NCBI RefSeq assembly: GCF_003231495.1
Contig: NZ_PQWO01000017.1
Span: 1 to 32,000 of the forward strand
Origin: Acaryochloris thomasi RCC1774
GTDB lineage: Bacteria > Cyanobacteriota > Cyanobacteriia > Thermosynechococcales > Thermosynechococcaceae
DNA length: 32,000 nucleotides
Reading direction: 5' to 3'
Made by a program: the position numbers and the translations under genes. The notes under the pieces were generated by a model that ran no database searches, had not been told where the DNA came from, and worked only from the letters and a program-made list of their open reading frames with translations. This document shows, piece by piece, positions 27,679-29,255 of this stretch. Position 1 is the stretch's first letter. Every line of letters begins with the position of its first letter.

Positions 27679-27707
27679 TTGATATAGTGAATGATAATCA
27701 TTATCAT
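27679..27707 (+). promoter_or_regulatory. Promoter (TTGATA-N17-TATCAT) overlapped by a Zur box (ATGATAATCATTATCAT, 27691-27707) upstream of sufE-like/COG0523
   Basis: The -35-like TTGATA is at 27679-27684, followed by a 17-nt spacer and a -10-like TATCAT at 27702-27707. The palindrome covers the spacer and the -10, which is the classical repressor geometry. It lies 30 nt upstream of the ATG at 27737. Confidence 0.8.
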
Positions 27708-27736
27708 TTTAACGATACACCTGCACTCCAGGCGCT

Positions 27737-28180
27737 ATGTCTATGGTGACGACCCCTCTCCCCCCCGCCCTTGCCAAAATTGTGAAGCGCTTCGAGCAGA
27801 CCTCTGATCCCAAGCAGCGATACGAATATCTGCTCTGGTTCGCCAAGCGATTGCCCCCCTTCCCAGAAGCTGATAAACAGCCCTGCAATAAGGTCGTGGG
27901 CTGCGTGTCCCAGGTCTATCTCACTGCCACTTCGACCGACGGCGGGGTTCACTTTCAAGGGGACTCCGACGCTCAAATCACCAAAGGGTTGGTGGGGCTG
28001 CTGATTGAAGGTCTCAATGGATTGCCGCCCGAACAAATTGTGCAGCTCACCCCAAACTTTATTGAACAGACCGGCCTCAACGTTAGCCTTACCCCGTCAC
28101 GCAGCAACGGGTTCTACAACATTTTCACGACTCTGCAGCGATTAGCGCTGCAGCTCATGCCCCCAGAGCAAAATCATTAA
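27737..28180 (+). CDS. sufE: SufE-like sulfur-acceptor domain protein
   Basis: FEQTSDPKQRYEYLLWFAKRLP...KVVGCVSQVYLTA...FQGDSDAQITKGLVGLLIEGLNG is the SufE/Fe-S metabolism-associated domain pattern, including the conserved Cys in GCVSQV. Confidence 0.8.
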   Translation: MSMVTTPLPPALAKIVKRFEQTSDPKQRYEYLLWFAKRLPPFPEADKQPCNKVVGCVSQVYLTATSTDGGVHFQGDSDAQITKGLVGLLIEGLNGLPPEQIVQLTPNFIEQTGLNVSLTPSRSNGFYNIFTTLQRLALQLMPPEQNH

Positions 28181-28199
28181 CCGCAGACGGAGTCAACCC

Positions 28200-29255
28200 A
28201 TGATTCAATCGCCCATTCAACAAGCCCTGCCGCAAACCGATCTGCAACTGCCCAAGCGAGGGATGCCGGTCACGATCATTACGGGCTTCCTCGGCAGCGG
28301 CAAGACCACGCTGCTCAATCACATTCTCCATAATTGCCAGGATTTGAAAGTGGCGGTGTTGGTGAATGAGTTGGGCGATATCGATATTGATAGCCAGCTC
28401 TTGATTTCTGTGGAATCAGATATGGTGCAGTTAAGCAATGGCTGTATCTGCTGCACCATTAATGATGATCTCGTCGAAGCGGTCTACAGCATTTTGGAGC
28501 GGGACGAGAAGGTGGATCACTTGGTTGTTGAAACGACGGGGGTGGCAGATCCGCTGCCTTTGGCCCTCACCTTTGTGGGTCCGCCGCTGCGGGACTTAAC
28601 CCACCTCGATTCCATCGTGACGTTAGTGGATGCTGAAACCTTTTCCCCACAGCATTTTAAGAGTGAAGCAGCCCTGAACCAGGTTTCCTATGGTGACATT
28701 ATTGTCCTCAATAAGACTGACTTAGCCCCAGAGCAGCAGGTAGAAGATTTAGAGCAGTGGATTCGTGAGCAGAAGTGGGGGGCGCGGATATTGCGATCGC
28801 AACACAGCCAAGTCCCGCTACCGTTAATTTTAGAGACCGATCTGTTTCGCCCTGATCGCTATGCCGCAGAAGCGAAAGCTCTCAGCGAAACTGCCCACGA
28901 TCATGATCATGATCATCACGGCCACGGTCACCACGGCCACGATCATCATCATCACTCTGACCACCTTGCCAACGATGGTTTTTTATCGGTGGCCTTTGAG
29001 AGCGATCGTCCCTTTGAACTTGAAAAATTTCAAACTTGGCTGACGGAACAGTTATCAGAGAACGTCTTTCGGGCCAAGGGATTTTTGTGGTTTGAGGCGG
29101 TTGCCCCGCGCTACATCTTTCAGCTCAGTGGCAAGCGCTACACGATGGACTCCGATGACTGGCCCACCACACCGAGAACACAGCTAGTGCTGATTGGCCG
29201 TGATTTAGATACACAGGCACTACGGCAACAACTTCAAGACTGCTTGGCTCAATAA
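28200..29255 (+). CDS. COG0523-family metallochaperone GTPase with His-rich insert
   Basis: P-loop ITGFLGSGKTTLLNHIL, CxCC motif GCICCTI, ETTGVADP and LNKTDL are present. A His-rich stretch HDHDHDHHGHGHHGHDHHHHSDH spans aa 233-255 (nt 28896-28964). A CobW_C domain follows (FRAKGFLWF...QLVLIG). Confidence 0.9.
   Translation: MIQSPIQQALPQTDLQLPKRGMPVTIITGFLGSGKTTLLNHILHNCQDLKVAVLVNELGDIDIDSQLLISVESDMVQLSNGCICCTINDDLVEAVYSILERDEKVDHLVVETTGVADPLPLALTFVGPPLRDLTHLDSIVTLVDAETFSPQHFKSEAALNQVSYGDIIVLNKTDLAPEQQVEDLEQWIREQKWGARILRSQHSQVPLPLILETDLFRPDRYAAEAKALSETAHDHDHDHHGHGHHGHDHHHHSDHLANDGFLSVAFESDRPFELEKFQTWLTEQLSENVFRAKGFLWFEAVAPRYIFQLSGKRYTMDSDDWPTTPRTQLVLIGRDLDTQALRQQLQDCLAQ

Follow-up and report, generated by a model that had tools for sequence, protein, structure and literature searches.

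Why should a gene for sulfur transfer in Fe-S cluster assembly stand behind an operator of the zinc type, directly in front of a gene for a zinc-type chaperone? The question is raised by a two-gene locus in Acaryochloris thomasi RCC1774, which lies in the 32,000-nucleotide stretch of DNA analysed here (the window). An earlier note, made from the sequence, had offered two answers, that the pairing links zinc limitation to Fe-S biogenesis or that the SufE fold has been co-opted as a Cys-based metal relay. The signals upstream of the first gene, sufE, are the following:

27679 to 27684, + strand: -35-like hexamer TTGATA, from the promoter scan
27690 to 27708, no strand: predicted Zur-type operator, a 9-1-9 palindrome, AATGATAAT-C-ATTATCATT, both arms perfect
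27692 to 27706, no strand: 7-1-7 core of the operator, TGATAATCATTATCA, with 0 mismatches to the consensus TGATAATNATTATCA
27702 to 27707, + strand: -10-like hexamer TATCAT, within the right arm of the operator, from the promoter scan

The TTGATA-N17-TATCAT promoter described in the note was recovered at 27679-27707, with a 17-nt spacer and 10/12 consensus positions matched in the promoter scan. The palindrome said to cover its spacer and -10 element does cover both, from 27690 to 27708 and as a perfect 9-1-9 repeat (the arms were checked by direct base-by-base comparison), so that the operator overlaps the core promoter. Its perfect arms are the longest among the five related sites of the window. 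Allowing at most 1 mismatch, the consensus TGATAATNATTATCA occurs at 4 sites in the window versus 0.00 in 100 shuffles, and allowing at most 3 mismatches it occurs at 11 sites versus 1.2 expected. Just two + strand promoter-like sites were found 5' of sufE in a promoter scan of 27300-29700, and the second, weaker one (27661-27688) has a predicted start that also falls under the operator. A tRNA was the sole Rfam match, and neither a riboswitch nor a leader was found in the 600 nt upstream.

The same type of box recurs at three other places in the window:

5143 to 5157, no strand: Zur-type box with 1 mismatch, upstream of a hemB paralog and znuABC (- strand)
14817 to 14831, no strand: Zur-type box with 1 mismatch, upstream of DUF1636, flavin oxidoreductase, and FeoB-like genes (- strand)
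21397 to 21411, no strand: perfect Zur-type box, between ThrRS, HisI, and hexapeptide paralogs (- strand) and FolE, COG0523_A, a P-loop protein, and two metallophosphoesterases (+ strand)

Containing znuABC, zinc-enzyme paralogs, and a second COG0523 gene, the window represents a zinc-limitation island, although no zur gene lies within it. The context of the boxes at 21397 and 5143 suggests that they belong to the same regulon as the sufE operon. A Zur regulon of Anabaena/Nostoc sp. PCC 7120 was reportedly described by Napolitano et al. 2012. The operator core found here, TGATAATCATTATCA, is identical to the Zur site given for Anabaena alr3242 and represents the same operator type (PMC10957091). 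The Anabaena regulon is also alike in containing znuABC, COG0523 GTPases, and ThrRS, HemB, and FolE paralogs, and in having operators that overlap promoter elements. A study of the exoproteome in an Anabaena zur mutant (PMC10957091) does not cover SufE. The boxes of znuABC and the zinc-enzyme paralogs, the identity with the alr3242 site, and the conservation of the box upstream of orthologous operons all point to a Zur-type operator, as the note had proposed.

The name Zur rests on this context, since the TGATAATNATTATCA core is also that of the classical 7-1-7 Fur (iron) box of Bacillus and E. coli. If FurA bound the palindrome instead of, or besides, Zur, the operon would be iron-responsive and the presence of sufE in it would be unsurprising. 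The same box type precedes the FeoB-like gene and a putative [2Fe-2S] protein, and Anabaena sufE (alr3513) went up 7.9-fold on FurA depletion, but FurA did not bind the alr3513 promoter (PMC4788461). The 7.9-fold rise is uninformative with respect to zinc because the wild-type control was in the same Co/Zn-free medium. The box equals sites assigned to Zur in Anabaena and also precedes znuABC, the hemB paralog, the ThrRS, HisI, and FolE paralogs, and COG0523, which together are the hallmark of a zinc regulon, while no classical iron-uptake gene was found within the window. We consider control by FurA very unlikely.

The first gene of the operon and its predicted active site are located as follows:

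27737 to 28180, + strand: sufE, 147 aa, Pfam SufE E=1e-42
27902 to 27904, + strand: codon of Cys56, the predicted persulfide acceptor, in GCVSQV

The note had called this gene SufE-like and had pointed to the acceptor Cys, and both statements hold. The protein scores 145 bits against PF02657 (cut-off 27) over profile positions 2-120 of 121, and GCVSQV occupies residues 55-60. Cys56, in the loop ahead of the first beta strand, is invariant in 13/13 aligned sequences and aligns with Cys51 of E. coli SufE (GCQSQV). The sequence matches PDB 1MZG with E=6e-18, and its AF2 model (pLDDT 91) matches 1MZG_A in Foldseek with E=1e-11 and a TM of 0.84 to E. coli SufE, as well as 8VBS (SufE bound to SufS) and CsdE. 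It thus shares with the E. coli proteins the fold, the acceptor Cys loop, and the GDSDA and TPSR motifs, but it is only about 30% identical to E. coli SufE, and its gene stands apart from sufBCDS. Scores against the NCBIfam SufE (79 bits, cut-off 160) and CsdE (77, cut-off 136) models fall short, these models being built around proteobacterial proteins. The database gene call of sufE starts at Met3 (27743), giving 145 aa, and the NCBI name for the cyanobacterial homologs is 'SufE family protein'. The E. coli suf operon is controlled by iron, oxidative-stress, and Fe-S signals, while the predicted regulator of the sufE described here would sense zinc.

Outside the cyanobacteria the closest homologs are the plant and algal plastid SufE1 (SufE-BolA) proteins, whose SufE domains are 45-50% identical. 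These proteins differ in carrying transit peptides and, at the C-terminus, a BolA domain, and they are not known to be regulated by zinc. A distant likeness of fold extends to Bacillus SufU, a zinc-dependent sulfur transferase, and IscU (Foldseek IscU TM about 0.5), whereas SufE has one conserved Cys and lacks the zinc-ligand triad. We regard the SufU resemblance as a lead rather than as membership; conceptually, it ties zinc to sulfur transfer. Use of the zinc-dependent SufU is not known from cyanobacteria.

Within the cyanobacteria, the protein is 65-83% identical to other SufEs, including ones that are not Zur-linked, and the SufE tree follows taxonomy. Its only cysteines are the canonical Cys56 and a non-conserved Cys50. 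An alignment comparison revealed no common extra Cys or His in the Zur-linked SufE copies, and between Zur-linked and unlinked SufEs there was no shared sequence change and no added metal ligand. Judged by its sequence, this is an ordinary, vertically inherited cyanobacterial SufE, which speaks against the co-opted metal relay of the note. A neofunctionalised metal-binding SufE was dropped as a candidate because the Zur-linked copies have no specific Cys or His in common.

Knockout of sufE is lethal in Synechocystis and Synechococcus 7002, and the acceptance of sulfur by SufE from SufS has been reviewed for Synechocystis Slr1419/Slr0077 (PMC7058544). A GTDB scan gave one sufE locus per species in 80 species, among the matches listed, and no plasmid copy was found among cyanobacterial plasmids. 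When clustered at 50%, the cyanobacterial SufEs fell into a handful of groups, none of which formed a distinct second family. The gene is essential in model strains, and these searches gave no hint of a separate SufE family for housekeeping; were this sufE the sole copy, its tight repression by Zur would be paradoxical and would call for basal or alternative transcription.

The gene might instead be an extra, zinc-sparing back-up that accompanies a housekeeping SufE or a zinc-dependent sulfur-transfer protein elsewhere, comparable to the ThrRS, HemB, and HisI paralogs. Paralogs of this kind make up most of the rest of the island, and 2 copies of sufE do occur in Phormidesmis, where one assembly has the sufE-COG0523 pair duplicated as a unit, and in one metagenome, where one of the 2 related copies is flanked by transposases. 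Both Phormidesmis copies, however, are Zur-island copies and sister sequences, and to our knowledge SufE does not need zinc. Together with the single locus per species among the matches listed and the lack of a distinct second family, this makes a back-up role highly improbable.

Downstream of sufE, the operon continues with these features:

28181 to 28199, + strand: intergenic spacer of 19 nt, with a Shine-Dalgarno-like GGAG 7 nt before the ATG
28200 to 29255, + strand: COG0523 (G3E) GTPase, here COG0523_B, 351 aa, with cobW and CobW_C domains
28443 to 28454, + strand: CxCC metal-binding motif CICC, residues 82-85 of COG0523_B
28896 to 28964, + strand: His-rich insert HDHDHDHHGHGHHGHDHHHHSDH, 23 residues, residues 233-255 of COG0523_B

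All that the note had said of this gene, a COG0523 GTPase 19 nt downstream with a CxCC motif and a 23-residue His-rich insert, was confirmed. The cobW (3e-56, 190 bits) and CobW_C (9e-26, 90 bits) domains score above their cut-offs, and the match to YjiA 1NIJ (E=1e-38) spans both. Walker A (GFLGSGKTT, residues 29-37), ETTG (111-114), and NKTD (171-174) motifs are present, and the CxCC motif was found in all surveyed COG0523 neighbours. The His-rich HDHDHDHHGHGHHGHDHHHHSDH forms an interdomain linker between two YjiA-aligned stretches, and sufE-adjacent orthologs have 9-21 His in their richest 30-aa stretch. Orthologs across the cyanobacteria are 60-92% identical. Since its scores fall below the cut-offs of all the characterised subfamilies (ZigA 211/600, CobW 183/332, YjiA-type PRK11537 164/361, Mrf 26/375), COG0523_B is assigned to an uncharacterised cyanobacterial subfamily. 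From the motifs and the regulon context we infer that it serves as a zinc metallochaperone, binding and passing on zinc in a GTP-dependent manner, in keeping with the zinc-type chaperone of the note.

The two genes are on the same strand with a short gap and a conserved adjacency, as expected of a bicistronic operon, and neither a terminator-like nor a promoter-like site was predicted on the + strand of the gap. As far as can be judged from sequence, they would be co-transcribed, as had been suggested. Zur-regulated COG0523 proteins such as B. subtilis ZagA/YciC with FolE, A. baumannii ZigA, and E. coli YjiA/YeiR (Haas et al. 2009, PMC2770081) are alike in Walker A, CxCC, CobW_C, and the Zur box upstream. 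COG0523_B further resembles them in its His-rich stretch, a feature of about 40% of the COG0523 family (PMC2770081), and in that its orthologs elsewhere in cyanobacteria most often adjoin FolE. What sets it apart is the sulfur-transfer protein of Fe-S assembly encoded directly 5' of it, a combination absent from the literature searched.

The layout of Zur box, sufE, and COG0523 is conserved in Acaryochloris, Leptolyngbyaceae, Phormidesmis, and metagenomic relatives, and was not described in the literature searched. The operator is found upstream of orthologous sufE-COG0523 operons at seven further loci, 43-64 nt from sufE, and in other lineages it is the sole conserved block upstream of these operons. 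The box is perfect at -64 from sufE in loci L085 and L086, has 1 mismatch at -45 in the Phormidesmis locus L087 and at -44/-45 in the Leptolyngbyaceae loci L003, L004, L036, and L044, and has 2 mismatches at -43 in L088. Other arrangements have intervening genes. Acaryochloris, including A. marina MBIC11017, has a perfect box followed by a flavin oxidoreductase, sufE, and an overlapping COG0523 gene, and in locus L024 ThrRS, sufE, and a P-loop protein come after a box that lies 2 kb upstream. The module of DUF1636, oxidoreductase, and FeoB-like genes found in the window lies directly 5' of sufE in related genomes, complete in L088, as DUF1636 directly upstream of sufE in L089, and as oxidoreductase and FeoB-like genes upstream in L085. 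Among the matches listed, a marker gene of the Zur regulon lies no more than about 6 kb from sufE in 49 of the 80 GTDB species.

This pattern is not universal. The Nostocales sufE has the same island neighbourhood (P-loop protein, metallophosphoesterases, zepA-like gene, COG0523, WD40), but no box was found within 200 nt of it (0 of about 60 loci), and none was found for the sufE of Microcoleus and Coleofasciculus. In Nostocales, sufE (alr3513 in PCC 7120) lies 1-5 kb from a different, His-poor COG0523 gene, whereas the sufE of the window opens an operon under the control of a box. COG0523_B orthologs without an adjacent sufE occur in L. boryana and Planktothrix. The absence of the box from sufE in the former lineages and of sufE from COG0523_B in the latter indicates that the link between sufE and Zur is lineage-specific.

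Gene order bears on whether SufE is a direct partner or client of the His-rich COG0523 protein, so that the pairing would reflect a protein complex beyond co-regulation. Examples of such a relationship are a persulfide or Cys handoff that tunes zinc at CxCC, or a chaperone that acts on the SufS-SufE machinery. The order is strict: in about seven lineages sufE directly precedes the gene for a COG0523 or related P-loop protein. The gaps are small, ranging between -7 and +47 nt across 13 further loci, with a stop/start overlap in Acaryochloris. Phormidesmis has both genes duplicated together, and COG0523 genes often lie beside their clients, such as FolE in this window. A partnership is nevertheless unlikely, given the Zur-linked SufEs with neither a shared change nor added metal ligands, the COG0523_B orthologs that have no neighbouring sufE, and the absence of SufE-COG0523 fusions from the 120 top-ranking homologs of each protein.

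Conservation is equally relevant to a simpler account, in which a housekeeping sufE has long been in or near the zinc island, leaky or additional promoters suffice for its expression, and Zur control has no zinc-specific purpose. The vertical descent of SufE, its essentiality in model strains, the Nostocales gene in the same neighbourhood without its own box, and the differing position of sufE inside the island from lineage to lineage are all consistent with this. Against it, sufE comes to stand behind a Zur box in at least three different arrangements, conservation of the box immediately 5' of the gene is good, and of the two + strand promoter-like sites one is covered by the operator and the other has its predicted start under it. 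We doubt that sufE is a passenger of this kind.

Our preferred explanation, held tentatively and at somewhat less than even confidence, is that sufE and COG0523_B form a two-gene operon of the cyanobacterial Zur regulon, in which normal sulfur transfer is co-induced with a zinc chaperone. When zinc is sufficient, a Zur dimer would bind the 19-bp palindrome over the spacer and -10 element and block RNA polymerase. Under zinc scarcity the two genes would be transcribed together, the GTPase acting as a zinc metallochaperone through its CICC site and His-rich linker and SufE taking persulfide sulfur from SufS on Cys56. Placement in this operon would enable the cell to transfer more sulfur and assemble more Fe-S clusters while the zinc-sparing programme is being switched on, a programme that would include the flavin oxidoreductase, the FeoB-like transporter, and DUF1636, a predicted [2Fe-2S] ferredoxin of the thioredoxin-like type (PMC4520260). 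The analysis shows how the locus is built, to which families its proteins belong, and that the layout is conserved; from these patterns we infer Zur binding, the zinc response, co-transcription, and, most of all, the physiological reason for SufE induction. Any benefit that extra SufE would bring to zinc-limited cells is conjectural. The first of the two proposals in the note, that zinc limitation is linked to Fe-S biogenesis, is plausible and is favoured over the co-opted fold.

Zur regulons are usually read as comprising zinc uptake, zinc-free paralogs, and COG0523 chaperones. A recurrent Fe-S sulfur-transfer member would bring zinc and iron-sulfur metabolism into a cross-talk absent from current models, and it poses sharply the question of how an essential gene is expressed behind a repressor site. 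Acaryochloris marina MBIC11017, which carries the arrangement, is cultivable. Since most COG0523 clients and partners are unknown, a conserved and tightly coupled neighbour is a concrete candidate. It is a rather improbable but consequential prospect that in several cyanobacterial lineages the only, probably essential SufE is wired to zinc status in fixed stoichiometry with a His-rich COG0523 protein, either as a zinc-gated sulfur supply for Fe-S assembly or because SufE additionally works as the zinc chaperone's partner. Such a role may be persulfide-assisted loading or release of zinc at CxCC, or the mobilisation of zinc from thiolate stores. If true, zinc-gated sulfur supply or a SufE-chaperone partnership would be a direct bridge between sulfur trafficking and zinc allocation of a kind not described before.

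The window, cyanobacterial DNA of 51% G+C, is a zinc-limitation island in which sufE and a COG0523 GTPase gene (COG0523_B) form a predicted operon behind a Zur-type box, a 15-nt 7-1-7 site:

27679, + strand: -35-like TTGATA (promoter scan)
ending at 27707, + strand: -10-like TATCAT, 17-nt spacer from TTGATA (promoter scan)
27737-28180, + strand: sufE, 147 aa, full-length SufE domain (Pfam E=1e-42)
28200-29255, + strand: COG0523_B, 351 aa, cobW and CobW_C domains

The TTGATA-N17-TATCAT promoter that the earlier note placed beneath the best-conserved palindrome was found, and the pair matches 10 of 12 consensus positions in the promoter scan. 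Its spacer and -10 element are covered by a perfect 9-1-9 palindrome, AATGATAAT-C-ATTATCATT (27690-27708), with the longest perfect arms among the five related sites of the window. The 15-nt core of this palindrome is identical to TGATAATNATTATCA. Allowing one mismatch to that sequence, the 32-kb window has 4 sites versus 0 in 100 shuffles, and allowing three mismatches it has 11 versus 1.2 expected. The core at 27692 is the same sequence as the site listed for alr3242, a Zur target of Anabaena PCC 7120 (supplement, PMC10957091). No FUR-family genes were found in the window. Bacillus and E. coli have this 7-1-7 motif as their classical Fur box, so that Zur is assigned here from gene content and the Anabaena data and not from the motif alone; control of the operon by iron through FurA, which would use the same motif, we consider very unlikely.

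The first gene had been described as SufE-like with a conserved acceptor Cys, and both points hold, with GCVSQV at residues 55-60. The protein shares 80-83% identity with SufE of Acaryochloris and 65-72% with SufE of Nostocales, Oscillatoriales, and Leptolyngbyaceae; all hallmark positions (the Cys loop, GDSDA, and LTPSRxNGF) are invariant in the alignment, and a neighbor-joining tree agrees with taxonomy. An AlphaFold2 structure (pLDDT 91) fits E. coli SufE at a TM of 0.84 and also fits SufE in complex with SufS. By sequence and model, the protein is the ordinary cyanobacterial SufE. A fold re-purposed to bind metal, put forward earlier as a Cys-based metal relay, is unsupported, because Cys50, one of two Cys (50 and 56) beside two His, varies among homologs, and alignment and tree comparison revealed no additional Cys or His common to the Zur-linked copies and no metal ligand specific to them. 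Among 1.8 billion cluster representatives searched, very few clusters at the 50% level take in the cyanobacterial SufEs; Thermostichus (50% identity) and plant SufE-BolA come next, and nothing pointed to a second, divergent SufE family in cyanobacteria. A C-terminal SufE domain with 68% identity to the window SufE also occurs with a PPC domain in an 879-aa "DVUA0089 family" protein of Leptolyngbya sp. 7M (P0241, WP_211620349.1), which may be a true fusion or else an artifact of gene calling.

The second gene is the COG0523 GTPase that had been described 19 nt after sufE. The gap contains GGAG, and scanning it revealed no promoter-like or terminator-like sites. The protein carries Walker A, CICC, ETTG, and NKTD motifs, with the 23-residue His-rich insert in its interdomain linker, and scores under the equivalog cut-offs for ZigA, CobW, and PRK11537. 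It belongs to an uncharacterized cyanobacterial COG0523 subfamily, with orthologs at 60-92% identity in many cyanobacteria. In the mechanism best supported by these sequences, Zur would occlude the sufE-COG0523 promoter when zinc is sufficient, and under zinc limitation a bicistronic mRNA would yield canonical SufE and a zinc metallochaperone. A tRNA-Cys(GCA) gene (29576-29646, - strand) is convergent with the end of the operon, and a CysRS paralog is present in the related islands L088 and L090; this may be coincidence.

The order of box, sufE, and COG0523 recurs in two ENA metagenome contigs (perfect box, 64 nt upstream of sufE), Phormidesmis priestleyi (1 mismatch, 45 nt), a JGI metagenome contig (2 mismatches, 43 nt), and four Leptolyngbyaceae loci (1 mismatch, 44 or 45 nt), and the box is the sole conserved block in the aligned upstream regions. 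Four Acaryochloris species, including A. marina MBIC11017, have a perfect box, a flavin oxidoreductase gene, 18 nt, and sufE, whose end is overlapped by COG0523. In a marine MAG locus (L024), a box with 2 mismatches lies about 2 kb upstream, followed by ThrRS, sufE, a P-loop protein, and metallophosphoesterases. By sequence comparison, sufE stands behind a Zur box in three or more types of arrangement and in no fewer than six or seven lineages. P. priestleyi GCA_053471545.1 has two sufE-COG0523 pairs in different zinc islands on contigs 1 and 16 (L087, L089), one with znuABC and the other with ThrRS, DUF1636, and FolE; their SufEs are sister sequences, and either the pair was duplicated as a unit or the assembly is mixed. 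DDE and Tn3 transposases and a resolvase flank one of the ENA copies (L086, ERZ25070786 ctg144247l), in which COG0523 is truncated to 181 aa; this suggests that the module can be mobilized.

The COG0523 genes directly 3' of sufE elsewhere are COG0523_B orthologs, which score 470-630 bits and contain 9-21 His in the 30-aa segment where His is densest; the ortholog is second after sufE in Leptolyngbyaceae, behind a His-poorer paralog of about 370 bits. COG0523 strictly follows sufE, and the genes overlap or are tightly spaced, which leaves some room for a direct partnership of the two proteins, a reading we regard as unlikely. No sufE adjoins the ortholog in Leptolyngbya boryana and Planktothrix, where FolE lies 3' of it, and FolE also lies 3' of the ortholog in L088 (the JGI contig), L089, and JSC-12-like loci, so that FolE is its commonest neighbor and sufE a variable 5' addition. 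Among the 80 GTDB species sufE loci listed, which are mostly from Nostocales and not phylogenetically independent, COG0523 is adjacent in 6 and downstream on the same strand within the locus in 47, and one or more Zur-regulon markers occur in 49; the 899 kb of these loci hold 32 boxes with no more than one mismatch versus 1 after shuffling.

In Nostocales, boxes are absent within 200 nt of sufE, which lies between a P-loop/metallophosphoesterase operon and a zepA-like gene with COG0523, each with its own boxes. The order after sufE is an alpha/beta hydrolase, an opposite-strand gene of about 300 aa with Zur boxes, a COG0523 of another type (His-poor, 323 aa, 1-5 kb downstream), and a WD40 protein:

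5478-6389 of the Nostocales locus L001, - strand: the opposite-strand gene

By its position this is probably zepA (all3515), which encodes a zinc-acquisition exoprotein (PMC10957091), since it is two genes from sufE (alr3513). The sufE loci of Microcoleus, Tychonema, and Coleofasciculus have no zinc gene within 6 kb. That a housekeeping sufE is merely resident in an old zinc island is about as improbable as the partnership.

Knockout of sufE is lethal in Synechocystis and Synechococcus 7002 (PMC7058544), and neither the listed GTDB species loci nor the 50% clusters gave evidence of a second, box-less copy. If sufE is the sole copy, its expression is needed at sufficient zinc; the only other promoter-like site upstream of it in the scanned region (27661-27688) would start inside the operator. 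A back-up paralog is, if anything, slightly more improbable than FurA control, and both are less likely than partnership, residence, or the co-induction favored below.

The remainder of the island comprises the following features:

5143: Zur-type box preceding a hemB paralog and znuABC (genes on - strand)
6971-8173, - strand: MerR-CbiC regulator (longest ORF)
7871-10111, + strand: P-type ATPase (longest ORF)
11502-14733, - strand: DUF1636, YpdA/ArsO-like flavin oxidoreductase, 553-aa FeoB-like GTPase/permease
14817-14831: Zur-type box (1 mismatch) preceding these three genes
15376-15666, + strand, and 17523-18201, - strand: toxin-antitoxin-like pairs (ParE; Gp49 with HI1420-type antidote)
18283-21356, - strand: ThrRS, HisI (PRA-CH), and hexapeptide-repeat (gamma-CA-like) paralogs
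21397-21411: perfect box between divergent operons
21500-23143, + strand: FolE (PF01227 type) and the second COG0523, His-poor COG0523_A (CVCC)
23148-25496, + strand: P-loop protein and two metallophosphoesterase-like genes, downstream of FolE/COG0523_A
26654-27139, - strand: 161-aa Cys-rich protein with treble-clef zinc-finger (zf_Tbcl)

The P-loop protein (258 aa, GPPGSGKT) has no Pfam or NCBIfam match, its homologs match CobW_C weakly, and the second metallophosphoesterase-like gene has no family match; the trio is kept in Zur islands of Nostocales, L. boryana, and L024, in the last directly after sufE. The MerR-family regulator carries a fused CbiC (precorrin-8X methylmutase-like) domain and adjoins the P-type ATPase inside the island, an arrangement similar to CoaR/CoaT, with which Synechocystis senses and exports cobalt; because their longest ORFs share about 300 nt, one of the two starts has probably been placed wrongly. 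Toxin-antitoxin-like pairs are scattered within the island, and a Gp49-like pair lies just upstream of sufE in the ENA contig L085 (4918-5561). The zf_Tbcl gene is divergent from sufE across a 600-nt intergenic region and has no Zur box near its start.

The separate parts, a Zur operator, a Zur-regulated COG0523, and SufE, are of known kinds. Full-text literature searches that paired SufE with COG0523, with Zur or its regulon, or with zinc and cyanobacteria gave incidental co-mentions only, and pairing it with zinc limitation gave no result; SufE is mentioned neither in the COG0523 survey (PMC2770081) nor in the Anabaena Zur study (PMC10957091). The combination is undescribed in the searchable literature, which includes few subscription journals, where an earlier report is possible.

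Within the regulon, DUF1636, the flavin oxidoreductase, and the FeoB-like protein form an Fe/Fe-S-related sub-module, DUF1636 being a predicted thioredoxin-like [2Fe-2S] ferredoxin (PMC4520260). The module recurs in zinc islands of related genomes: in L088 and L089 parts of it adjoin sufE on the upstream side, and in L085 the oxidoreductase and FeoB-like genes stand farther upstream. Acaryochloris has another flavin oxidoreductase (Lys/Orn-oxygenase type) directly upstream of sufE. Because this sub-module belongs to the regulon and parts of it lie near sufE in relatives, we tentatively favor co-induction, a reading to which we give somewhat less than an even chance and whose physiological rationale we infer: SufE may be induced under zinc limitation to add sulfur-transfer capacity alongside the zinc-sparing program.
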